The notes beneath the pieces are model-generated. The model had not been told where the DNA came from and did no database searches. It was given only the letters and a program-made list of their open reading frames with translations. From Prorocentrum cordatum (Eukaryota), in NCBI GenBank assembly GCA_963575745.1, contig CAUYUJ010000237.1, positions 496,001 to 560,000 of the forward strand: a stretch of 64,000 bases of DNA, in the 5' to 3' direction. This document shows positions 25,540 through 64,000 of this stretch, one piece after another. The translations under genes were made by a program, and so were the position numbers. Position 1 is the stretch's first letter. The number at the start of each line of letters is the position of its first letter.

Positions 25540-48203
<22,664 letters not shown>

Positions 48204-51200
48204 GCCCGCGCGCCCTGGCGAACGCCGCTGGGGGTCAGACGGCCCACCGCCGAGCCTCCAGCTCCTCCTCGGCCTCCTCCTTCCGCCTCCTCCTCCACCT
48301 CCTCCTCCTCTTCCTCCACCTCCTCGTCGGCCTCCTCCTCCTCGTCCTCTGCCTCCCCTTTTCCGCCCCCTTCCTCAGCTTCGCGCGCAGAAATGCCTCG
48401 TGACTCATAATGGAGGAACGTGGATCCGAGAGAGCCCCATGACAGCCCAGGAGGACCCCAAGATGCCGAAGAGAACGCCAACGCGGCCCAGAAACCTCCC
48501 GAGAGGGCCCCAAGCGAAGAGCGAGATGGGAAACCCGAGCATTATTTCGGGCCCTTTCCCCAGGCCCCCAAGACTGCGAACGGCAGTTTGTGATCGTGAC
48601 ATGGGATCGTGCCAGAGTTTTTCCGACGGCTACGGCTGTCTCTCGTCCCGCCAGAAGGGCCGCGGTTCTAGGCGCAGTAGAGCGGGATGCACGCTCGCTC
48701 GCCCCCTCGCTTCCGCCTCCTCGAGGATGCACTTGTATCGGAGATGGATCCGTTTCTGGAGCGTCCCGAGGGCTCCGCCGGCGTGCGAACGCAGTCACAA
48801 CGAGCGTTGCTTCCTTTGCCTCGTCTGCCAGTGCCGTGCGCTTCGGCCACTGCAGAGGTGCTGTTGCATCCTGCCGAGGAGGCGGCGGTCCTCAAAGTGC
48901 GCTACTGGGGCGTTCTGTTGGTCTTCACCCCCCGGAGCAAACAAACAGGGCTCTCGGCCACATGCCGGTCTTCTCTGCCGTCCTGCCCAATAGAGGAAGC
49001 CTTGGTGTGTTTGCGCCGGGCGCCCGCACCTCCCGAGTGGGAGCTCTGCGGCACGGGGCTGCCCCGCCGCGTGCTCGGTGCCGCGTGCGCCCGCTGCCCC
49101 GGGCTGTGGTGCGACGCCGGGCGCCCTGCACACAACCACGGTGCGGCGAGCGTCGCCCCACAGTCCACCCGCATGGCAGGGAGGGGCAAGGTCAGCGGCA
49201 GCTGCAAGGCGCGCGACAGCAAGAACAGGAACCGGAAGGAGGACGAGCAGGAGTTCTGGGAGGAGGGCGCAGGCAAGATCCCAAAGGGTGCCCCTCGCAT
49301 CCTGGCCCATTCGGCCCATGCTTCGCGACTCTTGCCGGCCGTCCTCGTTCGATGACTGCGTGCTGGCTCCGAGGGGCCGCGCCGACGTGGGGTCACTGCG
49401 TGAAGGCGTTGCTGGAAAGGGGTGCCGATTGCGCCACTCGATTCGGCCCACTTCCCCAGCGCCACTCGGAGCCCGAGCGCGCACCGGGAGGGCGGGACAG
49501 CGGTGCGAAGGGTGGCCGCAGGCGGCCACGCTTTGCCGCGCGGGCCGGTACACTCAGCCCACCACCCGCGAGGCGAGCCCGGTATTTCCTACACCTCCCC
49601 GGCGTCCAGGCAGCACCGCGCACGCGCACGGCACGTCCGCGCGGCGCCCCGCAGAGCCCGAAGTGTTGACGCAATTGGACGTTCCAGTCCCCTCGCCGGT
49701 TTTTTTGTTGCCCCCACGTCGCCGCGGCGGGGCCCGCCTCCCTCGGAGAGGCTTGGGGGGGTCGACGCGCGAGAGGCGATCCGTTGCCCGAACGGGCCAC
49801 TGGCGTGAAGCCACCGATTCCACGAATCCACGAAGCCACCAAGGGGCAACCGAGAGCCAGCTAAATCGTCCTGTTCCAAAGCCCTACGGTTTTCGGGACC
49901 ATGAGAACCACGGACATGGCCCCCCGAAGGCCTTTGCATCTTTACCGCGCACTCTTATGATACGGGCTGGCTGTGTGGGGCTCTGTGCCCGGGTGTCCGG
50001 TGGCATCTTGGCCCAGGGCTCGCGCACGGGCTCGTGTCCAAGGGGCCGAGCCGCGTCGCCCTGGCTGGGCGGCCACGCTCGGGTGCCTTCAGCGCCGCTG
50101 CCAACAAGATGTCCAGACCAAAGGCGCCCCGCAGCGGCAGGGGGCCCCCCGGCGCCAGCGGCGACGCTGCCGCCCGCCGCCGCTCTCGCTTGTGCCGCGC
50201 GCCTGCCGAGAGGGAGGGCGCCTCGGGGGCCGCATCCGGTTCCTTAGGTCAACGCCTTGACTGCACGTAGCGGCGATGGTTCCGCCGGCGAGGGATCGAA
50301 GGGGGTCACAGGTCTTAGACCTCTGGGCGCCAACGGGTCCTGAGGGGAAACGGGTCCTGAGGTATTTTGCTGCCGTCTGTGGCTCCTCAGGGCCCTCCAC
50401 GGGCCCCGGGACTGCAGGAAAACCAGTTAGGCTGAACAGCTGGTCCTGGGGCCCAGATCCCGCATTGACCCGTTTCCCTCATGCAAATCCAAGCGCTCCC
50501 ACGTGGAGGTCGGAGAGTTGCACCGCATCGCCGATGCATCGGCGGTGTGGCTCGATGTCATTGGCGATGCATCGCCGAGGCGGCGCGATCCTCCGACCCA
50601 TCGGCGAGGCGGCGCGATCCTCCTCCAATCTGATCCCCATCTAGGAGGCCTCTAAGACCGCCGATCTGGATTCGATTTTCCCCCAATTACTCCCTGCCTC
50701 CCAGACCCCGGACGTCGTGCTTTTGTAACGACGTGGACGTGGACCCCCAGAGGTCTGAAAAAGCGCGTTCTGTGGTCGCTTGGTGGGGGGGGGGGTTGGA
50801 ACCGGACCTCCCCCCGCACCCTTGGATGGAGGGGGGGGTTCGACCCCCCCCCCCACTACCCCCTCGCGTGACGGAGGGGGGGGTTCGACCCCCCCTCGCC
50901 CCCCCTCCACCACCCTCCTCCCCTACTTCTCCTCTCTCCCTCTCCTCGGGCCGGCGCCCGAGGTGGTAGTGGTTGTGGTGGTAGTGGTGGTTGTTGGTGG
51001 TGGTGGTGGTGGTGGTGGTGGTGTGGTGGTGGTTGGTGGTGGTGGTGGTGGGTTGTGGTGGTGGTGTTGGCGGTGGTGGTGGTTGTGGTGGTGGTGGTGT
51101 GGTGGTTGGTGGTGGTGGTGGTTGTGTTGGTGGGCGTTGGTGGTGGTGGTGGTGGTGGTGATGGTTTGGTGGTGGTGTGGAGCCAGGTCCCACTAAACCC

Positions 51201-51860
51201 AGTTCCGCCAACGCCCGATTCTGGGGAAGGGGACCCGCAAGTCCATACTGCAGTCGACATGGACAGAGGTGTTGCCCGCAGGAGTGACCTTCGGTTATGT
51301 CGGGCGTGTCCCCTACAGGGGGATTTTCGACGACAAATGAAACATACCCCAAAAATACTCCGAAGAGGTCAGAAAATACCCCAAGAAATAGTCCCCAGAC
51401 TAGTTTTGGACTCTCTTTCGGCTATGTTTGGGGCACTTTTTATTCTTCGTCGAACACCCCCCTGCAGGGGTACAGGCCCCTGCAGTCGACATGGACAGAG
51501 GTGTTGCTGAGGAGGAGGAGGAGGAGGAGGAGGAGGAGGAAGGCATTTCGGCCGAGAGGCCAGCCTCCGAGCGGAGGCCCGCCCCCATCGGCCGTGCCTC
51601 GGCGCGCCGCGGTGCGCCATAGAGCGGTGGGAGGCCCCAGGCCGACCCCTCCTGCTGCTCTCGAGGCGCGGCGGCCGCGCTGCGCTGCGGACCGCGAGTG
51701 GGTCACCCCGCTGGCGGCTTCGCCGCCCAGATTGCTGGCCACGCCGTCGGACGGGGGCTGGCACAGGCGGGATCGGGCCCGCCGCAGCTCAGCCAGGACC
51801 CTTCTCAGGGTTATCGAGGCGGCGCGGACACTGGAACAACATCATAGTGCACAACAGGGC

Positions 51861-53675
51861 ATGAATCGTCGCGACCAACAGTGGAGCGGCAATGGGAGCA
51901 ATGGATATGCGGGTGGTGGCGGAAGCAACTCATGGCAATGGAAGGAACAGACACCATGGAGGCAGACTCGCAGGACGGGAAGGAGCCAGTCGCGACCAAG
52001 AACGAAGGAGAGGGATGGTACTGGGCAAAACAATAGGTTCGACAAGCTGAATGACACGATCCCGATCGCCACTCAAGAAGACGCGGTTGGCCACCCATCA
52101 TTTGCATGGCCACCCGAGGATAAGGGAGCAGCCAAGGAGCACCGTGCTATGTTGCTACGCCGAATGAACGGGCTCCTCAAGATGATCGCAGCAGCAAAGG
52201 AGGCAAAAGAGACGGCGACGACGCAGATCACGGAGGTATCGATGATAAAATATACCCTCCTCATCATGAGGCCGTCTTATAAGCAGAAGAAGATATTGGA
52301 GCATGACCTGGAGAAGATAGACGGTCAATTACGAAAGATTGGTTTGGATATCAAGAAGCTTCGGGATTCAGAGGTAGAGTTGCGAGGGAAACGTACACAG
52401 ATAGAGGTATTGATGAATGACCTTCAACGTCAGCGTGAAGAGGAGGAAGCTGAGGATGATCGGGAGATGGAGGAAGACAGCGGAGAGGCGGAGAATACCA
52501 GGGCGCGGCCAAGAGTGCTACCCCCGCCTCCGCGGCCTCCTGACGCAATGGAACAGATGCTGCAGCAGATGACTCACTTGACAAGATTGGTCACTGAGCA
52601 GTCGGTCAAGATCCAGCAACACGAGAACATCATGAACCAGCAGATCCTTGGCATGGGATATCTCAAGCAGGCTGCAGCACAAGAAGATCTGCAGAGGCAG
52701 CAACAACATGAAGCCGAGCGACAGCGACAGCTTCAGGTACAGCAGCAGCAGCAGCAGCAGCAGATGTTTCTGCAGCAGCCGCAGCAGCAGCAGCAGCCGC
52801 AGCAGCAGCAGCAGCAGCTCCAGGTACAGCAGCAGCAGGAGATGTTGGTGCAGCATCAACAAGCATATCATGATTGGCTCTACCGACAGCATCAAACAAT
52901 GTTTGCATCAATTTCTAAGGAGGAGCACGAAAGGCAGTTGCAGGAATTCGCGCGAGAGCAGAATGCCCAGGCGGAAGCGGAGGACGTACGCGACTTGCAG
53001 GAGTTCGCGCAGGAGTTTCAAGCATGGGAGGAGAACAAGCGCCAGCAAGTGGAGATCGCCCAGGCTATCAAGAGCTCCATGCAGGGACACCAGGGGCAGC
53101 CTCCTCCCCCCAGGTCTCCAGGGCCGCTACTACCATCTGCTGAGGAAGTTGATCAAGCCCTCCTTCAGCAAAGTCAGGTAAGCCAGGCGACCCCATTCTC
53201 CAGAGATGAACAACTAGCAGAAGAAGAAGAGAGGACACAATCGTTTACTCTTTCCCCGACAGAACCGGCTACATCACAGGTCCCATCAGAACAAAATACC
53301 CCAGTGCGTCAGAGTGATGATCCCTATGTCGGAGCCAGCCCTCTTCATTTTCATCAAGTACCAGCTGGCAAGTACGGGGCAATGAAGCCATTCTTCGAGC
53401 GGAAGGCCAAGTTGCAAGAGATATCGCCGACTCAGCCAATGACACCTATCGGGCTAGATGGTCCAATTTACCATGCGATTGGGACACCACCAGCTGGGGG
53501 TACTCCCCAGGCAGCTACTTCCGACAGTGGGGAAAGTATATTGGGTCGACAGCCTCCGGCAAAAGTACGTATGGGCGAGCGAGAGGGAGGAGATGGTTTC
53601 GAACAGCCAGCTGATCGCACACGGATTTCATCGCAGTCCAAGCCATCAGCTGCATCGAGCTCGTCAAAAAAGTGA
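51861..53675 (+). CDS. LINE ORF1 protein (604 aa): basic N-terminus, coiled coil, polyQ, Pro/Ser-rich tail
   Basis: First ATG 52 nt inside the element. Heptad-like LEHDLEKIDGQLRKIGLDIKKLRDSEVELRGKR. Position upstream of pol. No zinc knuckle recognised. Confidence 0.8.
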   Translation: MNRRDQQWSGNGSNGYAGGGGSNSWQWKEQTPWRQTRRTGRSQSRPRTKERDGTGQNNRFDKLNDTIPIATQEDAVGHPSFAWPPEDKGAAKEHRAMLLRRMNGLLKMIAAAKEAKETATTQITEVSMIKYTLLIMRPSYKQKKILEHDLEKIDGQLRKIGLDIKKLRDSEVELRGKRTQIEVLMNDLQRQREEEEAEDDREMEEDSGEAENTRARPRVLPPPPRPPDAMEQMLQQMTHLTRLVTEQSVKIQQHENIMNQQILGMGYLKQAAAQEDLQRQQQHEAERQRQLQVQQQQQQQQMFLQQPQQQQQPQQQQQQLQVQQQQEMLVQHQQAYHDWLYRQHQTMFASISKEEHERQLQEFAREQNAQAEAEDVRDLQEFAQEFQAWEENKRQQVEIAQAIKSSMQGHQGQPPPPRSPGPLLPSAEEVDQALLQQSQVSQATPFSRDEQLAEEEERTQSFTLSPTEPATSQVPSEQNTPVRQSDDPYVGASPLHFHQVPAGKYGAMKPFFERKAKLQEISPTQPMTPIGLDGPIYHAIGTPPAGGTPQAATSDSGESILGRQPPAKVRMGEREGGDGFEQPADRTRISSQSKPSAASSSSKK

Positions 53676-56600
53676 GGTGGGAGACTCCGACGCGGAAGGC
53701 TGGCCACCGCGCGTCGGAGGTAGTTGCAAAGAGGGCCTCACAAAAGACTCGAATTCAGGGCATTTTGCCATCGTCGTCAACGGAATGTGGGACATCCGCG
53801 ACGACATCACCAACGGCCTCGAATCACATCTCATCTTCTTTGACAACGGCATCCCCAAATACAGATTCTTATGATCAGTCGCAATGCTGTGGTGGTATTC
53901 CATTTCATCGTCATGCTGATCGGGGTGCACGTGACACTGATTTTTTTCTAGGCGAGGAGGGCCGAGAAGTACGTAGGGAAACCACGGCGGATTTGCAGGA
54001 ACACGCTTCTTCAGGAGGTGGAGATCCTCATCCTTCGGCACCTATCTCAAGGTCAGCTCTGTCCATTCCTCCCCCTCCTGGCTTGGAAGGACAGGTGTCG
54101 ACCACGCAGGGCGGCTCGTCAGCACATGAGGTCTTACGCCATCAGGCTCACCCTCAAGGACCAGCTGCATCTGCACATACACAACATCGTCAATTTCTAG
54201 GTTCCGTCTCCCAACCGTCACGACACAAACGGTGCGAGGTGGAGATTCCAAGAACTTTCTTGGAGGTAATCGGCCAGCTGGACTACCCAGTACGACTTGC
54301 TCATGATCTATCACGAGTTGAACTATCGGACATGGCCAAGTCTCCACTGCGTGTGGTTGCAGGGCGACCAGGGGTGCCAGAATCGGGGACAATCTCGGGG
54401 CACCTTTGGACGGACGGCTCCCACAAAGAGTCTGACCCCACCTGTGATGGGTGGGCTGTGGTGGTCGGACTTGGAGATGGGACGGACTGCTTCTATCAAG
54501 GATTTCTATCATCGCGTACTCTTGGCAGCTCACTTCTAGTTTCTGAGGATGGCAACCTAGACAGCACCACTTCTGAGATGGTCGCCATGGTCTGGGCACT
54601 GGTATACGTATTACAGGAGAGCCATTACAGAGATATCACGTGGACGATTACATCAGATTCGAAAGTCACTCTCGGGGTTGTGCATAGACTACATGGGTAT
54701 AAACCCAATGAAGAACTAGCAGCCTTTCTGTCGATTTTAACGCAAGAAGTACAGCACAGGTGCCATGTGGATTTCCGATACACTAAATCACACGATGAAG
54801 ATGGCTGGAACCACCTTGCTGACAACATTGCGAAGGCGAACCTCAAGTTCAACTTAAGGGAACATCATACACAGCTTGCAGGGCTCCTACGTTATCAGCC
54901 AGGCTTAGAATGGACATGGCTCAGGTATTCTCATGAGGACGCCGTATGTTACCCGAAGGTTACGGATGATGGACTCGACTTTTGTATGCCAGCACGTCTT
55001 GCGCATCAAGAACACAGCAGAATTGAGACATTGGGTAAGTTCAAGGAGTGTTTGTACGACACGAAGGCCAGCAACAGGAAGGCAAGATCCTCTCAGGTCT
55101 CATTTAAGATCGCCACGTACAACGCCATGTCCCTGACGGAGGCCAGGTCGAGTAAGTTAAACCGACATCAGAGGGCAGCCAAAAAACATCGGCTCCAACG
55201 GCTTCGTCTACAATTTCAAGATGATCAGCTTCTACTTGTTGGAGTACAGGAAGCTCGTGGAAAAGCCGGACAGCAGTGGGCGGACAATTATATCACGCTT
55301 CGATCGGGAGCAGACGCTGGAGGTCATGGATGTGCACTTTTGGTCTCTACGGCAATACCATATGCACACGACTCGCAGAGCTCAAGGCCCTTTTTCCTGT
55401 CCGACAAAAACTTACGTGTGTTGGTCCGCGAACCGACCCGACTTATGGTTAGAATATCGGCAACTCATCTGAAGCTCACTATCGGTATCTTTCATGCCCC
55501 CCAGCGAGGCCGGCCAGCATCAGAACGAAAGCAATGGTGGGATGAGACGTCGGACATGTTATCTCAACATCCTGTGGACATTCTTTGCATGGACGCGAAT
55601 GCACGGATGGATCACACCACAATGGAACTACCATACGTTGGATGCAAGGGGCCAACAAGCAAAGCAGACGATTCGGGCAGACGGCTTTCGGACCTTGGCC
55701 TACGGCACAAGCTATACATATACAACACTATTCATGGAGGAAATGATGATTGGACGTACACCGATGGCACAGCTACCCATCGCTCCGATTATGTTGGGCT
55801 CAGTCAGGTATGGTATGATTCTGCACAAAGCCTGCGCATCATCAAGGACTTGGACACAGGTTTGCAACAGGAGGATCATCGGCCAGTCACAGTAAGCTTT
55901 AGATGCCAGCACATTGCTCGAACTTGTGATGGACCAGTACCTCTACGGCTTTCATATGAAAAACTTTCAGACCCTGGATTACAGCTCGAATTTCGTCGCA
56001 GGCTCGAGACGCTACGTCCTGGTCACTGGGAACAAGAGGTCAACAATCAGTATGCTGAAGTTATTGGTAGCATAAAAAAGTATGCCAAGGAAATTTTCTC
56101 GAAGGACCTGTTGACTCCACACCAAGCATATATTAGTCGTAACACCATGCAGCTCATCCGATTGCGTCGGTATGTATTGGCAGCTCGGAGGAAATGGAAA
56201 CGCAAGGAGCTGGATGCCTTCGACAACCTATGTAAGTTCCTACCGAGTCAACTGGATACTTACTCCAATGAGGGTGATCCTTGGCATCCACAGGCACAGC
56301 AGCTGGTATTAGGTATTGCTCTACTTCAGGACAAAATGTGGTCATTGCAGGAATTTGCTGCTCAGCTTGACTCGTTCATGGTGGTCACCCAGTCCATACT
56401 ATCGGATAGGTTGGAGAAAGAGAAGGCAGAGAGATTGGAATCTTTTGCTGATCAAATTGGAGAAGCAACACTTGCTGGAGATAACCGTCGAGCATGGCAA
56501 GCTGCAAACAAATTATTGCGCAGCGCTGGGCGGCAACATCCACGGCACACTGGAGGGTCATTTCTTCCGTATCGTGTGGACAATAACGGGGCTGTCATTT

Positions 56601-58741
56601 GTTCTGATGAAGCTATGGGCCACAACAGGATGAAGGTATACTCCAAGCTTGAAGATGCTCGGATTTTGGATGCTGCCTCATACGTGGACGAGTTTATTAA
56701 ATTTCCGAGTACGGCTCTGGACGACATTCCCCTGCACATTGAACATGTCCCAAGTCTTCATTTGGTCGAGAGGATGTTCACTAAGGGACCATCACGCAAG
56801 GCTGCGGGCACAGACGGCATTCAAGAGGAGTTGGTCAAGGCTGCACCTCGACAGGTAGCCCGCCTCATGGCGCCGATTATGACGAAAGTATGCTTGACTG
56901 GTATCGAGCCCATTGCTTTCAAGCACAGCCGGCTTGCGGAGGTCTCCAAGGCTAGTGGTGACCCATCGACCAACAAGGCGTACCGAGCGGTTACCATATG
57001 CAACGTCTTTGCCAAGCACCATTATAGATTCCTCCGACAACAACTGGCTTTTACGATCGACCTCATGCTGCGTGATTCGCAACTCGGTGGCCGTCCACGT
57101 CGTTCTCCGACAATGGCTGCGCATCAAGTCAGGTTAGTCTCGGCCATTGCGGCACGCATGGGGAAATCGGCGGCCTTCCTCTTCTTGGATCTGGTGGCGG
57201 CTTTTCACAGGATCATACGGCAGATGGCATGTGGTATGCAGTATTTGGAAGACGAGCCATTTAGGATCCTGGATGACTGTGATATCCCTGCCAGTCTTGT
57301 GCCGCTGGCTTCTGCGATCATTGCACAACCTGGGCTCCTGGATTCTGCACAAGTTGACCCGCATCTACGGCATCTCGCATCGGAGTCGCAACGTCTCACG
57401 GTATTTGAGGTCGCGGACAACCAACAACTCGGGGTTCCGACCAGAGGATCGAGGCCAGGATGCGCGACGGCCGACTACTTTTTCAATATTGTTTTCTCGA
57501 AGCCACTTAACACTGCTGTGGAGAAGCTGGACTCACTGGGTTTGCTTTTTGATTGCTCTGCACTTGATCAAGACGTCCCACTTGTGCGCAAACACGATGA
57601 CCGTTGCACAAAGTTGGTGGACATCACTTTCGTTGATGATGTCATGATCCCAGCTATCTTGGACAACGACATGGTCGTGGAACATCTTCGGCAAGCGATG
57701 GACACCATGCACGAATCGTTTATCTCGCATTTTATGGAACCCAACTATGGCAGAGGCAAAACGGGTGTGGTGGTCCAAATACGTGGTGCGCAACGGGAAC
57801 AACTTAGACACACGCTATACTCTGAGGATGCCACGGTCATTAAAAGCGATAAGTACAAGTACGAGTTCTACATTGAAAGGCAGTACAAACACATGGGGTC
57901 TATCATATCGTTCGATACATCATGGAATCCAGAGATGGCGCGACGGGTACAACGGCATGAGCATGCAATGGGCCCGATTCGCCGAGGTATTTTGTCAAAA
58001 AGATCAATTTCGACAGCGGCCAAGGTGCGGTACGTTGAGGCCCTGGCTTGCTCTCGCTTATTACAACAGGTTGAGATATGGCACGACATCGGAGTGGTGA
58101 ACGAGGGTAAGGTCAATGCAGCATATATCAAAGCGATGCGGTCGGCCACGGGTATGGTGCATACCACGGAGACTGGCGAACATTTCACAGACCAGGCGGT
58201 GCTCTATTTTGCCCAGCGCCCTGGCTTATCTGACATACGCAGAATTCGTAGGTTGAAGTATATTGCTCGCGTTATACACGACGGGCCTGCCACTCTGCGC
58301 ATGCTAATCGACATCGATGGCCTTCAAGGCACTTGGATGGGCTTACTGGAGAGGGATTTCGAATGGCTTCGCATGACCGTACCCGACCGCACAACCAACA
58401 TTGACACGCTGCAGCAATGGATTTCTTTCATTAGGTCTGGTAGTAAGAGGTACATCGCGATCTGCAATCAAGCTTGGCAACGGCATCGTATTCATTTGCA
58501 GGGCGAGTATCAACTATATGTATGGCGGCGCCACCTTTTGGCATTTCAGGCTAGCCTGGGAACGTTGGGGTCACTGTTGAGAGGTATATCTGTTATGAAT
58601 GTGGCGATACGTTTTCATCACGGCGGGCGTGGCAGGGACATCGGACAAGACTACACAGTGGGGTTACCAATGCTGGTGACTATGCGGAAACAGGATACTG
58701 CAGGGCTTGTGACTCGGACTTTCACACGCGGAAAAGACTAA
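53672..58741 (+). CDS. LINE ORF2 polyprotein: RNase H - APE endonuclease - reverse transcriptase
   Basis: RNase H ~54400-54845 (WTDGS, TSEMVA, TSDSK, KSH..GWNHLADNIAK). APE ~55100-55890 (ATYNA, GVQE, FHAP, MDANA, RSDY, EDHRPV). RT ~56800-57910 (KAAGTDG, YRAVTI, FLDLVAAF, GSRPG, FVDD at 57629-57640, YKHMG). First ATG at 54332. The reading beyond ~58555-58590 is probably out of frame. Confidence 0.93.
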   Translation: MRWETPTRKAGHRASEVVAKRASQKTRIQGILPSSSTECGTSATTSPTASNHISSSLTTASPNTDSYDQSQCCGGIPFHRHADRGARDTDFFLGEEGREVRRETTADLQEHASSGGGDPHPSAPISRSALSIPPPPGLEGQVSTTQGGSSAHEVLRHQAHPQGPAASAHTQHRQFLGSVSQPSRHKRCEVEIPRTFLEVIGQLDYPVRLAHDLSRVELSDMAKSPLRVVAGRPGVPESGTISGHLWTDGSHKESDPTCDGWAVVVGLGDGTDCFYQGFLSSRTLGSSLLVSEDGNLDSTTSEMVAMVWALVYVLQESHYRDITWTITSDSKVTLGVVHRLHGYKPNEELAAFLSILTQEVQHRCHVDFRYTKSHDEDGWNHLADNIAKANLKFNLREHHTQLAGLLRYQPGLEWTWLRYSHEDAVCYPKVTDDGLDFCMPARLAHQEHSRIETLGKFKECLYDTKASNRKARSSQVSFKIATYNAMSLTEARSSKLNRHQRAAKKHRLQRLRLQFQDDQLLLVGVQEARGKAGQQWADNYITLRSGADAGGHGCALLVSTAIPYAHDSQSSRPFFLSDKNLRVLVREPTRLMVRISATHLKLTIGIFHAPQRGRPASERKQWWDETSDMLSQHPVDILCMDANARMDHTTMELPYVGCKGPTSKADDSGRRLSDLGLRHKLYIYNTIHGGNDDWTYTDGTATHRSDYVGLSQVWYDSAQSLRIIKDLDTGLQQEDHRPVTVSFRCQHIARTCDGPVPLRLSYEKLSDPGLQLEFRRRLETLRPGHWEQEVNNQYAEVIGSIKKYAKEIFSKDLLTPHQAYISRNTMQLIRLRRYVLAARRKWKRKELDAFDNLCKFLPSQLDTYSNEGDPWHPQAQQLVLGIALLQDKMWSLQEFAAQLDSFMVVTQSILSDRLEKEKAERLESFADQIGEATLAGDNRRAWQAANKLLRSAGRQHPRHTGGSFLPYRVDNNGAVICSDEAMGHNRMKVYSKLEDARILDAASYVDEFIKFPSTALDDIPLHIEHVPSLHLVERMFTKGPSRKAAGTDGIQEELVKAAPRQVARLMAPIMTKVCLTGIEPIAFKHSRLAEVSKASGDPSTNKAYRAVTICNVFAKHHYRFLRQQLAFTIDLMLRDSQLGGRPRRSPTMAAHQVRLVSAIAARMGKSAAFLFLDLVAAFHRIIRQMACGMQYLEDEPFRILDDCDIPASLVPLASAIIAQPGLLDSAQVDPHLRHLASESQRLTVFEVADNQQLGVPTRGSRPGCATADYFFNIVFSKPLNTAVEKLDSLGLLFDCSALDQDVPLVRKHDDRCTKLVDITFVDDVMIPAILDNDMVVEHLRQAMDTMHESFISHFMEPNYGRGKTGVVVQIRGAQREQLRHTLYSEDATVIKSDKYKYEFYIERQYKHMGSIISFDTSWNPEMARRVQRHEHAMGPIRRGILSKRSISTAAKVRYVEALACSRLLQQVEIWHDIGVVNEGKVNAAYIKAMRSATGMVHTTETGEHFTDQAVLYFAQRPGLSDIRRIRRLKYIARVIHDGPATLRMLIDIDGLQGTWMGLLERDFEWLRMTVPDRTTNIDTLQQWISFIRSGSKRYIAICNQAWQRHRIHLQGEYQLYVWRRHLLAFQASLGTLGSLLRGISVMNVAIRFHHGGRGRDIGQDYTVGLPMLVTMRKQDTAGLVTRTFTRGKD

Positions 58742-59617
58742 TCTACCACCTGAAGTACAGGGACACGGGGTGCCTCGATTGTCTGCGGGCGACAATACCA
58801 CCACTACCAGCATCCCTGGTCGCAGAACTGGACGCCAAGGATGCACTGGAGACGTCGCGGTTAAGATATATGGGATATTCAGAATCGAAGGCGATGGCCC
58901 CGCCAGTGAGAGGCCCCAACTACGTCCGAGGCAGGCATCAGCATCAGGATCAGGTTGAACCTCCAATAGTACACCTTCCTGCTGAACAGGTTCCTGCAGT
59001 TGCCCTTCCTCAGTATATCTTCGATGGATGTTCGGAATCAACAGTGCTGGTTTTTACCGATGGATTGGAGTCTTATTGTGAACTTGAGGCAGAGTTGGCA
59101 GCGCATGAACTTGATGGTCTTGAAATAGTTAGGCATGATATTCGAAAGTTCAAGATGGACGACCTGATCATGCGGGGCCAACATAGTGACCTGATTCGTG
59201 ATATCTCAATGGGCAGGATTTTTGCGATAATATGTGAGGTTGAGTCTATTACTTCAACAGGTATGGATTGGGGTTCTCCAGCAATCAATGGCAGGAGACG
59301 GTCCGAGCTGGACTTTGCAAATACGACACGAAGGTTTTTGACATTATTAATTATGGCTTGCAAGTTGTCTGGCACGCCTCTCAGTATCAAGTCCAGCTTC
59401 AATGAATGGTGTTGGCATGGAAGCGACTTCCAGCCAGGCCCTCCTCAGGTTCAGATCCAATGGCCTGGAGACGCGAGTGAGACGCTATCAATACGACTGG
59501 CTGACGCATGGGAGGGCAGAGATGATCAAGTGCGACGTGCTCGGCTTGGACGTCACGGCCTGCCACGCGGACGGCCTGCAGTCGGCCTTGGAGAAGGTGG
59601 TCCGACCGACCGTCTGA
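58555..59617 (+). CDS. Frameshifted C-terminal continuation of ORF2: two zinc fingers plus a degenerate DNA-methyltransferase-like domain
   Basis: The -1 frame opens after TAG at 58552-58554 and reads YICYECGDTFSSRRAWQGHRTRLH ... CRACDSDFHTRKRLIYHLKYRDTGC, running into track ORF 58870. The 3' end is uncertain: stop at 60165 in this frame, or 59617 after a second shift. Confidence 0.75.
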
Positions 59618-61180
59618 GTCGGACATCGGGCGTGGTCAGCCCCCCTCGGAGGAGCGGCGGGGCCCCCCCCATGGGCCCAATGCCTCCGAGGGGGGCTGCG
59701 ACGGTGTGCCAGCCCCCTGTCGCGCCCCTGGACCCCCCCCATGGGTCCACCCGCGCGGCAGGGGGCTGTTTGGCCGCGGCGGCGTCGTCGGCGCCGTCGG
59801 CCGCGGCCGGGCGCGGCCGCGCCAGTGCGGCCGCGACAAGACACTACGGGCAGCCTGCCCACGGAGCGCGAGCGCAGCAGCAGCAGGAGGAGGAGGAGGA
59901 GGTGGACATGATGGCAACGGCGACCACATCAGCACCGAACGCCGACCCAGCACCGACGATATGTGGCATGCTCGACTGCATCGTCATCCACAACAGCCAG
60001 GACCCGACTGCTGGATGTCAGAACGTCCAGGCGCGGTGCTCCTCGAGCCGCGACCTGGATACTCGTCGCCACAAGCCTCGAACTGCCTCGCTTCATCAAC
60101 CACGTCAGAACGCACGACCGACCACACCACACGTCGTCAGACAACGGAAAACGCCATGCCCGTAACAGGGGCACAAGAAGAGCAACGGGGGCAACCACCA
60201 CGCGATGGCGCCGTGTACGCACGCGAACGAGGCCAACCCCGAGGTGAACGCCCCCTCGAGGACGAGGGGGGGGAGATGCACATGCCCACCTAACAGAGCC
60301 CGCACGGGCGCTAGGACGGGTAGACTACCAGTCGCCCACAAGGGGCCTTCTCAGCGGCATCAGCCAGGCCTCGTTCGCGTCCTTCGATCTCGCCCTCTCC
60401 GATCGCCCAGGAGGCCCTCGTTTCTCGCTTTCCCCCTGGACGCGTTCGCCTGGTTCCGTTTTCCCTGGGCCCGCCTTCCTTCGCTTCGTAACTTAGAGGC
60501 TTCCTCTCCCTGGTGGCGGGTCCCTGGGCCAACATCGGTCGCTCGACTGGTTCGGCGTCGCGTCGCGCAGTAGCGCGCGGCGCGGCGCGGGCTGCGGCGG
60601 AACAGGACCGCCATGCCCGCAGTGTCGCAGGAGGAGGAGGAGGAGGAGGAGGAGGAGGAGGAGGAGGAGGAGGAGGAGGAGGAGGAGGAGGAGGAGGAGG
60701 AGGAGGAGAGGAGGGGGACAGGCCCGACCTAAAGCTCCGGCCCGGGGCTCAGGGCGCACCCCCCCCTCCCAGCAGTGTGGGGCCTGCGCGGCTGGCCCCC
60801 TCTGGAGCCGCGCACCACGGGCCGCTCCTGCCCCGGGGTCACTGAGGAGGAGGAGAAGGAGGAGGAGGAGGAGGAGGAGGAGGAGGAGGAGGAGGAGGAG
60901 GAGGAGGAGGAGGACTAGGAGGAGGAGGAGGAGGCGGAGGAGGAGGAGGAGGAGGAGGAGGAGGAGGAGGAGGAGGGGGGGGGAGGGGGAGGAGAAGCTC
61001 TTGCGTGTAGGCGAAGGTCGTGCTCCCCAGATTTCCGACGATCTGTTTTGGTTCACCCGGCGGCCAGCCTGGCGGCTCGGTGCAATCGAAGTGGGTACGG
61101 GGAGAGTGGGCTTGGCGGCGAAGTCCGAAGCATACACTCGCCGATCATCGATTCAGCCAGCTCGATGGGCGGCGGGGGTA

Positions 61181-61355: not shown

Positions 61356-63153
61356 CACACTCGCCAATCAACGATTCAGCCAGCTCGATGGGCGGTGGGG
61401 GTTGGGTTCGGAATTCTTCACGCTGTCGACATGTGCCACTGCTGTACAAACAAGAGTTACTGCCGTTTGCAGTCCTATCTGTGACGAGGTTGCCCCTCTA
61501 TTCCCTTGCGTTGACACGATGTTTCGACATTTGTGTTCGTCCACTTCACGGATGTCATCTGGGAGTGCTTGTCGGTCTCGTTCGTCTCTGACGTTGCCGT
61601 CTGACTGACTCACACCGAGTGGTCGACCTCTGCGTGATTTTGGTCGCGCCGCCGCGCCATTTTGGCTGCGTCTACTTGCTGGTGGCCACTGGGATTTTCG
61701 GACGCCACTGGGAATGGGTCTCTTTTCGCCCTTCTGAGCTGCCGCTCGTTTGCTGCGCCTGTCTTGCTTTTCCGCTTTTCCGCCCGCTGCCTAGTCGTGG
61801 CCCGGCTAGAGTTTGGACGCCTTTGGACCCGCTTCACGAGGCCGTTGGCCAAAACATACCCCGCCAGCCCGTCCAGAAGCCCTGTCCATGAAATCCGAAC
61901 CCTAGCCCCGCCTCCAATCAATTCGGGAGAATCGATGGTTGATGGGGGCAGGGTTCGTATGTCGCCACCGACTGGTGCGACGACCGGCAGCAGTTCCTGT
62001 CCATTTTGAGCAGGGTTCGCCGTCGGTGTCGCCACGGACGCTGTCCACTGACGGCAAGAAGCCGCCTGCGCAACAGCGGGCGTTGTGGATTTTGGACAGC
62101 ATTTGGCCGTTGGGCATCGTGCCCATTTTTCTGTGCCGATTATGGACGTGCCAAGCGGCGGCGCGCCCGGGCGCGCTCCCGAGATCTCTGGCGATGTGTG
62201 TTTTCAGTCGTCGGGTGTTCCTCGATGTGGGCCTCGGGGGCCCGTTGCCAGGCCCCTGCAGGACCATGACGCATGAACCCTGGGCGGAAAAAACTACCCC
62301 TGGGGAAGGGGTCAGGGCATTCTTTGGGCCGCGCATGGACAAACATATCATACCGTCGGATGTCTGGGAGCGCGCGCCGCGGCAACGCCTCTGGAGGGCG
62401 CCGTGGGGCGGCGGCTGGGGGTCCCGACGGTCCCATTCGGAGAGGGATTGGCCAGGCAGGTCCGGGGAGAGAAGAGATCGGCAAAGATGGGCCAAACGAT
62501 GGGCCGAGGGGGGGGGTCGAAGGAGTTACCGCAACGCAGAGCACAGCTGGTCCCGCCAGGGAGCCCCTTGGGCCCAGGGAGGAGGCGGAAGAGGGTGGGG
62601 GGAGTGGTGGGGCGGAGGCGGCTCAGAGGAGGAACGTCTACTGATATCGCTACCCGTCCCTCGTCGCCACAGCTGGTCAGGGGCAACGATAGGGCTGGAT
62701 AGGAAGAAGGGGGATGCATCGACCCCCAGTCGTCCATTTATCGCCCATAGGGGCCCGATAGCCCTACCCCGCCCAGGAACGGGGGGATTTGCGATCGGAG
62801 GCCTATTGTCGATCTATCGGCGATGTGTCACCGATTCTAGGTCGATATGTTTCCTCCCCAGGCCAGTCTTCCCATGTCGTTGCCCCTCAGCTGGACGCGC
62901 CTCGAAACCCTGGTCAGAGCGCACCGCTGGAGCCTGGTGCGCGCGCTTCTGGATTCTTGGGGCGGCGTCGCCCCGAGACAGGCGAGGGCGGCGACGGCCA
63001 CAAGGACGAGGCAGAAGACGGAAGGCGGAGGGGAGCAGAGAGCAGGAGTGGCAGCAGAAGGGTGGTGATGAGGACAAATAGGAACGAGATGATGATGATG
63101 ATGATCCTGATGATGATGAGGACGAGCAGGAACGCGACGATGATGACGACGCT

Positions 63154-63184
<31 letters not shown>

Positions 63185-63290
63185 CTGTTGATGGTGACGA
63201 TGATGATACAGATGATGGCGATGATGATGATGATGCTAATGATGCGGCTGATGATGATGCAGCTGATGATGATGATGATGATGATGATGC

Positions 63291-63327
<37 letters not shown>

Positions 63328-64000
63328 AATGATGATGATGGTGATGATGATGATGATGGTGACGATGTCGATGCTGATGCGGATGATGATGACGATGCTG
63401 ATGAGGATGATGATTCTGACGATGAGGATGACGATGCTGCTGCTGATGCTGCTGATGCTGATGCTGAACATGCTGATTGTGATGATGATGCTGATAGTGA
63501 TAATGATTGTGATGCTGATGCTGATGATGCTGATCAGGATGAGGATCATGATAGGTATGAGGTGATGCTTAGGACGATGACGCGGATGATGATGACGATA
63601 TTGATGTTGCTGCTGCTGATGATGATGATGATGATGTTGACGATGCTGGTGATGAGTCTAGTGATTGCGATGAAAACGACAATGCTGATACTGGTGCTGA
63701 TGATGCTGCTGCTGGTGACGATGGTGATGGTGATGGTATTGATGATGCTGATGCTGCTGTCGATGACTATGACTAGGATGAAGACGACGATGATGATGAC
63801 GACAATCATTCTGCTGAACTGGTTGCTGATTCTGGTGAAGATGATTGCGAAGTGTATGCTGCTGCTGCTGCTGCTCACGATGAGTATGCTTCTGCTGGTG
63901 ATGATGATGATGATTATGATGACGCTTATGATGATGCTGATGATGATGGTGATATTGATAATGATGATTATGATTATGATGGTCATGGGTGGTGATTCTG

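Follow-up and report, generated by a model that had tools for sequence, protein, structure and literature searches.

The window analysed here is a 64,000-nucleotide (nt) stretch of the Prorocentrum cordatum genome (assembly GCA_963575745.1; contig CAUYUJ010000237.1, positions 496,001 to 560,000, forward strand). It carries one copy of a long interspersed nuclear element (LINE); other copies were looked for in the window and none was found. The second open reading frame (ORF2) of this LINE is followed by two C2H2 zinc fingers, a linker and a C-terminal tail, and relatives of the element end their ORF2 at this very position in a conserved, unannotated domain, here called the GPPCETWS domain. Judged by its predicted structure, this domain has a derived C5-methyltransferase fold, and it is a more interesting result than the tail of the window. 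As to the tail, we lean with modest confidence towards the reading that positions 59041–59409 encode a degenerate, shortened and catalytically dead remnant of such a domain, which the lineage of this element carries under relaxed, not absent, constraint.

Using the reverse transcriptase (RT) part of ORF2 as a query, we obtained three relatives (P0005, P0006 and P0007). P0006 stops at a finger and P0007 is without the region of the fingers and tail; P0005 contains 'VLVHLYSGRRRAGD' and 'AGPPCETWSVARE' downstream of its fingers. A search with residues 1900–2186 of P0005 returned 70 proteins of 1220–3799 amino acids (P0005 and P0008–P0076), a set that was chosen by the domain itself and whose sources are dinoflagellate assemblies and metagenomes. 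All 70 are homologous to the ORF2 of the window (phmmer E 7.8e-80 to 3e-15), and their fingers and linker align to residues 7–128 of P0001, the translation of the open frame 58555–60165 on the forward strand. The domain order in these relatives is RNase H, apurinic/apyrimidinic (AP) endonuclease, RT, two C2H2 fingers, the linker and a C-terminal domain of ~330 residues.

A hidden Markov model (HMM) of the C-terminal domain matches every member of the set, and Pro-Pro-Cys or Ser-Pro-Cys is likewise kept in 70/70. The regular expression PC[EQ].[WFY]S finds 63 of the 70, the remainder reading GPPCCTWS, GPPCETWT or GPPCETFT. In the 59 full-length proteins, the C-terminal end lies ~194–288 residues past the Cys motif, mostly 212–235. 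The first part of the family consensus runs HLFSGRRRxGD ... ViSxD ... GDL ... GPPCETWSxAR ... GPRPLR ... WGL..L...E..Q...GN.LL, and the second part LEHPA.P ... PSIW ... QG..GA.S.KPT.LL ... G..G.FRTA.LKEYP ... PDY. An alignment of 30 sequences, whose members are 26–43% identical to the first, contains 24 invariant columns.

Sequence searches hardly connect this family with known enzymes. In the whole relative proteins, Pfam calls no PF00145; when the GPPCETWS domains are isolated, the most frequent of the weak Pfam matches is to PF00145 (4/30, best E 0.047). The family profile retrieved no methyltransferase chain among the Protein Data Bank (PDB) sequences, giving a chance Mis18 row (E 1.2). 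The AlphaFold2 model of the family domain, built from the 30-sequence alignment, has a pLDDT of 85.1 and a pTM of 0.87. Foldseek aligned it to the PDB with 19 matches at E<=1e-3 (top E 1e-4), all DNMT1 among the matches listed, followed by ZMET2, M.HaeIII, DNMT3A/B, a prophage methyltransferase and EhMeth; the TM-scores are low (~0.3) and the root-mean-square deviations (rmsd) high. In a VIA-align comparison with 48,161 representative chains, C5-methyltransferases occupy ranks 1–18 (Z 8.7–11.2), among them DNMT3B (Z 11.2, rmsd 4.2 Å, 210 residues aligned), DNMT3A (11.2) and M.HhaI (10.6), as well as DIM2, DNMT5, M.MpeI, Dnmt2, DNMT1, MET1, ZMET2 and M.HaeIII; generic Rossmann folds come next at Z <=8.0. 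The nearest named cluster of the family domain in the Atlas carries PF00145 (0.86), which we treat as a lead only. We base the assignment to a derived C5-methyltransferase fold on these fold matches, on the Pro-Cys loop and on the conserved Glu of the next strand.

The motif names used here (I, IV, VI, VIII and X) and the consensus sequences are the textbook ones for C5-methyltransferases. Like DNMT3A/B, DNMT1, M.HhaI and Dnmt2, whose fold it has, the family domain presents a Pro-Cys loop with an aromatic residue and Ser after it, a conserved Glu on the following strand (LEHP versus ENV), a motif I that begins F-S-G, and an Asp where beta-2 ends. Unlike in these enzymes, motif I goes on RRRxGD, with three arginines in place of the Gly-rich loop, and PCQ has become PCE, ENV has become EHP, QxRxR has become QG..GA.S.KPT, and the GN of motif X has become KEYP. 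The window tail keeps only the Gly, Asp and Cys-Glu of these motifs.

The initial annotation of this DNA had treated as settled knowledge that a C5 DNA methyltransferase occurs at the position of the tail in some Symbiodinium LINEs, which disagrees with the published case. In the part of the article considered here, SymbioLINE-Dnmt has its DNMT, found by PF00145, in ORF1, upstream of the RT ORF; the domain is described there as long conserved within elements, and yeast experiments did not demonstrate that the LINE version is enzymatically active (de Mendoza et al, 2018; PMC5890265). For Symbiodiniaceae, a 2026 preprint has SymbioDIRS-DNMT3 and SymbioLINE-DNMT only. As far as that part of the article describes it, SymbioLINE-Dnmt resembles the elements studied here in being a dinoflagellate LINE with a C5-methyltransferase-type domain plus an endonuclease and an RT. 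In contrast, the domain of our relatives is C-terminal in ORF2, follows two fingers and is essentially invisible to PF00145, and the window element has no DNMT match in ORF1 and probably only a relic as its own copy of the domain. Our literature search, which did not extend to Repbase reports, to journals behind a subscription or to the supplementary files of PMC5890265, found no description of the ORF2-terminal domain, just the ORF1 DNMT case.

Turning to the window itself, P0001 holds ...STVLVFTDGLESYCELEAELAAHELDGLEIVRHDIRKFKMDDLIMRGQHSDLIRDISMGRIFAIICEVESITSTGMDWGSPAINGRRRSELDFANTTRRFLTLLIMACKLSG..., and VLVFTDG begins at 59041; the translation returns exactly the peptide strings quoted in the initial annotation, with two C2H2 fingers upstream. 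Both fingers fall below the Pfam cut-offs (zf-C2H2_4 at residues 11–34, E 2.2e-4; second finger at residues 48–65; zf-C2H2_fungi_2, E 0.0069), and they align to those of related LINE ORF2s (BLASTP E 7e-8 for P0005; phmmer E down to 1.7e-16). An HMM of P0053, P0059 and P0069 aligns residues 7–119 of P0001 (E 4e-22, envelope to residue 135), and phmmer alignments of relatives extend to residues 117–128. From 58555 to 59529 the tail frame has no stop in 325 codons, compared with 11 and 22 stops in the other two forward frames, and at ~50% G+C composition such an opening would arise by chance with a probability of ~5e-8. The frame stays open into the G+C-rich flank to 60165, and neither the natural stop codon nor the 3' end of the element could be fixed. 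Separately, a contig of run X2 (labelled freshwater metagenome) spans 221 bases in the finger region (58654–58874), from which it differs in 5 places, and therefore comes from a close relative of the element in an environmental sample.

The tail stands where the family domain stands, last in ORF2 after two C2H2 fingers and the linker, and several alignments connect the two. Aligned to the family by hhalign, residues 130–285 of P0001 reach a local score of 19.7 (P 0.02–0.03), which was attained by 0/53 ORF2 control windows and 7/313 shuffles; the register sets IFAII----CEVES on GPPCETWS, DWG on the invariant (L)WG and AN on GN. Smith-Waterman comparison of residues 156–285 with the 59 family domains gave a mean score at z 4.3, reached by none of 300 shuffles and none of 89 ORF2 windows, and a top-ten mean at z 3.6 (1/300 and 0/89, respectively). 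MAFFT independently placed the tail Cys on the catalytic Cys, in the same register of the Cys segment as hhalign, with C84, E85 and S88 in invariant columns and G27 in that of the motif I Gly. The best Smith-Waterman alignment (to P0043) likewise sets the tail Cys on the catalytic Cys. After addition of the window, 7 of the 24 invariant residues survive (G, D, C, E, S, P, D), two of them in the part without significant similarity. The nearest named Atlas cluster of the tail carries PF00145 (0.84), again a lead only. Taken at this level, homology of the tail to the GPPCETWS domain appears probable, if well short of certain. The proposal that the tail is the Rossmann-like domain of C5-methyltransferases holds to the extent that the relatives have a C5-methyltransferase fold at this place, with TDG falling on FSG and IICEVES on GPPCETWS; the resemblance is weak, and the family HMM yields nothing.

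A number of results weigh against a descent of the tail from the family domain. The family HMM, run with filters off on all six frames of 58400–61000, did not report the tail frame; hhalign assigns the tail a probability of just 2%, with no significant family-profile match; and the HMM of the three nearest relatives ceases to align at residue 119 of P0001. Among 1.84 billion representatives, phmmer with the tail found its own fragment and a repeat protein and nothing else. The tail has no match in the PDB by sequence, and P0001 draws no PF00145 match even with E allowed up to 1. In the Smith-Waterman comparison, the best single score is ordinary (reached by 11/300 shuffles and 7/89 controls). 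From ~59392 on, no forward frame resembles the C-terminal half of the 59 family domains (frames 1 and 2, z -1.6 to 1.8, none significant), and hhalign and MAFFT conflict on the register of motif I and the beta-2 Asp.

Predicted structures of the tail add to these points. The AlphaFold model has a pLDDT of 70.9 and comprises three strands, a long helix, a disordered stretch (residues 134–159, pLDDT <50) and a last helix; it was built with the family alignment and is therefore not independent evidence. Its matches are generic alpha/beta folds only, with RadA as the best in Foldseek (E 0.02) and a receiver domain as the best in VIA (Z 8.5), and the best 50 rows of these searches contain no C5-methyltransferase. 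A structural comparison had been proposed as a check of the methyltransferase claim: the domain of the relatives matches C5-methyltransferases, and the tail model, dependent on the family alignment, matches generic folds.

These results leave room for an alternative that we consider unlikely but the best-surviving of the three weighed here, namely that the tail is unrelated to the family domain. The domain would have been deleted and a captured fragment, or the read-through of a former 3' untranslated region, would stand in its place, with TDG and ICEVES resembling motifs I and IV by chance. Apart from the missing HMM-level similarity, the missing relatives among the 1.84 billion representatives, the generic folds and the 2% of hhalign, it is favoured by the distance from the fingers to motif I (152 residues versus ~200 in P0059). 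However, several statistics exceed every real-protein control (0/89 and 0/53), the similar segments are collinear with the motif order of the family, three aligners set the Cys on the catalytic Cys, and the linker directly upstream is homologous.

If the tail is homologous, it cannot be a methyltransferase, because FSGRRR, Pro-Pro, PRPLR, LEHP, QG..KPT and KEYP are all lost. The cofactor loop of motif I (F-x-G-x-G) is absent: V-F-T-D-G-L-E-S in the window stands against H-L-F-S-G-R-R-R in the relatives, and Gly alone is kept. For motif IV, the window has A-I-I-C-E-V-E-S, in which Cys lies on the catalytic Cys and the Pro-Pro and the preceding Gly are missing (a 4-residue gap). Motifs VI, VIII and X, from the second half of the catalytic domain, have no counterpart in the window, whose C-terminal half is unmatched. 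The loss of FSG and PPC, already pointed out in the initial annotation, is real if the homology holds, given the placement by hhalign and MAFFT and the absence of Pro-Pro.

On the favoured reading as a dead remnant, the tail would descend from the GPPCETWS domain rather than replace it. The window lineage would have lost the basic motif I loop, together with the Pro-Pro that precedes the catalytic Cys, a PRPLR loop of 16 residues and all that is recognisable from the LEHP strand on. At most, the remainder would form an alpha/beta stub of three strands, which could not bind cofactor and substrate in the manner of a methyltransferase and would be catalytically dead. The lineage would have dispensed with the activity, and the tail would persist as an appendage at the C terminus on which constraint is relaxed but not absent. 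As all 70 relatives keep the Cys motif, the window lineage is an exception.

Paralogous copies bear on the state of the tail. The public run X1 contains 55% of the sequence words of the stretch under study, and its contigs include diverged paralogues of the element. Runs X3 and X4 yielded no contig for the stretch, and no RNA run was listed as containing it. One contig covers 58744–59377 with 57 differences (9%) and no gap, another covers 59286–59593 with 41 differences and no gap, and a third, diverged contig has a +1 and a -1 indel five bases apart. The absence of gaps from a paralogue diverged by 9% makes the loss of motifs a property of the lineage and not of this copy. Our substitution counts rest on 20 of the 57 differences of the first contig. 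In the tail frame, 7 of the affected codons are synonymous, 11 are non-synonymous and no stop arises, against 4:13 and 3:14, with stops, in the other two frames. By codon position, 10 differences are in the third, 7 in the first and 3 in the second, and conservative replacements are numerous, for example V to I, F to L, L to I and E to D. With 20 of 57 differences, 7/18 synonymous codons do not depart significantly from neutrality (neutral simulation P 0.077); the adjoining end of ORF2 and the fingers, at 8 synonymous to 4 non-synonymous, are not significantly off neutral either. The counts fit a coding sequence that may be under relaxed constraint, and they demonstrate no retained function. 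The earlier claim that the domain is kept open agrees with the open frame, the paralogue without indels and the absence of new stops; stops in other copies, named beforehand as a possible refutation, do not occur among the 20 of 57 listed differences.

One could instead suppose that the relic has been retained for a non-catalytic job, as a spacer or as a module binding nucleic acids or proteins, in the way of the DNMT3L scaffold. DNMT3L is a catalytically inactive DNMT3 paralogue with a scaffolding role, whose fold is complete and whose partner is known. The tail resembles it in that the protein is kept with the catalytic motifs of a methyltransferase fold lost, and differs in keeping about half of the fold at most. 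The 325 open codons, the three paralogue contigs that are without indels or carry a compensating +1/-1 pair, the lean of the listed substitutions to third positions with many conservative changes, and the kept Gly, Asp and Cys-Glu-x-x-Ser positions are in favour of such a role. Against it stand the synonymous to non-synonymous ratio of 7:11 in the tail versus 8:4 in the ORF2 end and fingers (neither significant), the loss of half of the fold, and the lack of a known partner or activity; among LINE copies, moreover, selected changes are mixed with neutral ones acquired after insertion. We regard a retained role as improbable, slightly more so than an unrelated tail. Of the two outcomes offered in the initial annotation, a retained non-catalytic role is not demonstrated, and the 7:11 count points to relaxed constraint.

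That the tail is no protein but non-coding 3' sequence of the element, open by accident, would fit a frame without a stop into the G+C-rich flank to 60165 and the unfixed stop and 3' end, but we hold it to be very improbable, in view of the 325 open codons (P ~5e-8, with 11 and 22 stops in the other frames), the clear protein homology of the fingers in the same frame, and the listed paralogue changes, which create stops in other frames only.

Further searches for relatives of the tail gave candidates that we rejected. A word-index search with residues 1–320 of P0001 found no long fused relatives, and a metagenome scan with the tail returned three loci (L001, L002 and L003). L001 has a canonical GPPCETWS domain (L001 1200–1650) and is not closely related to the tail; L002 matches the first finger and nothing more. 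L003 (3505–3567; a bacterial ribosomal RNA large-subunit methyltransferase-like gene) has the word RKFKMDDLIMR in common with the tail; this similarity is a product of the exact-word search and most likely chance, because the word was itself the search pattern. We also dismissed a continuation of the domain in the frame 59351–59617, suggested by eye from QG..KPT and KEYP, as there is no signal in it and no paralogue indel near 59400. The range of the initial annotation, which extends to 59617, leans on this frame, and the frame shows no similarity to anything compared.

In this copy, ORF2 and the tail are not read in one frame. ORF2 codons begin at 2 mod 3 and those of the fingers and tail at 1 mod 3, so that the latter are read one frame over from ORF2, starting at 58555. 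A paralogue contig of run X1 (58300–58661, 17 substitutions) has an additional C behind 58554, which unites the frames of ORF2 and the fingers. The break could be a 1-nt deletion in this copy or an assembly error; a programmed frameshift was judged less likely than these, as the paralogue carries the extra base. The copy may accordingly be a newly broken one, through a deletion of 1 nt at 58554. Because of this break, the element is not 'otherwise intact', as it had been called.

The features of the element are collected in Table 1. The stretch from ~51.8 to 59.6 kb has a G+C content of ~51%, in a window with ~60%; G+C drops from 0.76–0.82 to ~0.5 at the start of the LINE near 51800 and climbs to at least 0.7 from ~59550. 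No target-site duplication was found between both ends. ORF1 includes a poly-Gln tract (CAG array 52740–52838), and Pfam gives just two chance-level rows for it, with no PF00145 at E up to 1. The ORF2 frame spans 53615–58741 (1708 codons) with its own stop at 58741. It contains AP endonuclease (PF03372, 55115–55585, E 0.0017) and reverse transcriptase (PF00078, 56972–57214, E 1.1e-4) matches, both below the Pfam cut-offs; its RNase H part is putative, being taken from the PF00075 marks of relatives only, and Pfam shows no RNase H in 54362–54964. Over its length, ORF2 is homologous to 71 long dinoflagellate-type LINE proteins (phmmer E 7.8e-80 for P0005 to 3e-15), including entries named Cladocopium goreaui and EukProt 'Skav' entries. 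By this homology, the window element is classed with the RNase H–AP endonuclease–RT–zinc finger LINEs of dinoflagellates.

Table 1. Positions in the window of the LINE and of the parts of its ORFs and tail.
Feature	Positions	Strand	Basis
LINE retrotransposon, approximate limits	51800..59600	+	G+C profile
ORF1, from first ATG	51861..53675	+	ORF list; ATG read from sequence
ORF2 body (RNase H-like, AP endonuclease, reverse transcriptase), up to frame break	53615..58554	+	phmmer to relatives, sub-threshold Pfam
Frame break, one base fewer than in paralogous copy	58554..58555	+	run X1 contig comparison
Two C2H2 zinc fingers (P0001 residues 11–34, 48–70)	58585..58764	+	sub-threshold Pfam and alignment to relatives
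Post-finger linker common to relatives (P0001 residues 71–119)	58765..58911	+	HMM and phmmer
Probable relic, first half of C5-methyltransferase-fold domain (P0001 residues 163–285)	59041..59409	+	position, hhalign, Smith-Waterman
'TDG' where family motif I has 'FSG'; Gly alone kept	59056..59064	+	hhalign global alignment
'CEVES' where family has 'PPCETWS'; Cys, Glu, Ser kept	59233..59247	+	hhalign, MAFFT, Smith-Waterman
Open tail continuation without detectable similarity to second half of family domain	59410..59529	+	Smith-Waterman

The surroundings of the element are repetitive. Trinucleotide arrays lie around it (GGT x71 at 50962–51177, AGG x30 at 60629–60718, GAG x51 at 60844–60994 and a degenerate GAT array of ~296 units at 63088–63981) and hold several frames open as low-complexity pseudo-ORFs. 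At 59758–59811, the summed contig depth of run X1 rises up to 46.7, versus 4–12 across the element, and several X1 contigs have loose ends at 59641–59819; depth and loose ends together suggest a separate high-copy, G+C-rich repeat just past the LINE. The ratio of observed to expected CpG is 0.68 in the tail (59041–59529), 0.88 in ORF2 and 0.84–0.89 in the flanks, on a small sample. The window also contains an assembly gap (100 N at 45370–45469).

Retrotransposons with a cytosine methyltransferase of their own are a recent finding, much discussed because such elements turn a silencing tool of the host to their own use. The domain of the relatives suggests that dinoflagellate LINEs have another module with a methyltransferase fold, separate from the published one, which is ORF2-terminal and escapes Pfam-based surveys. 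For annotation, tails like that of the window should not receive a methyltransferase label. The window may be viewed as a natural experiment, in which long open frames persist for ORF1 and ORF2 and the module has probably shrunk to a stub without catalytic apparatus. Tentatively, and with less than even confidence, we propose that the GPPCETWS domain is a functional, so far undescribed pyrimidine-C5-modifying enzyme, fused to the RT of a very large and old group of dinoflagellate LINEs and distinct from the ORF1 DNMT. It would act on element RNA, complementary DNA or target DNA during insertion, in hosts with heavy pyrimidine-C5 modification of their DNA, and the window lineage would have kept copying after its decay. 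The features behind this proposal are the methyltransferase fold, the invariant Cys nucleophile and Glu, and the rebuilt cofactor loop. If it is correct, the decay in the window lineage would make the activity dispensable; an enzyme of this kind would widen the catalogue of epigenetic tools on mobile elements and provide a testable candidate.

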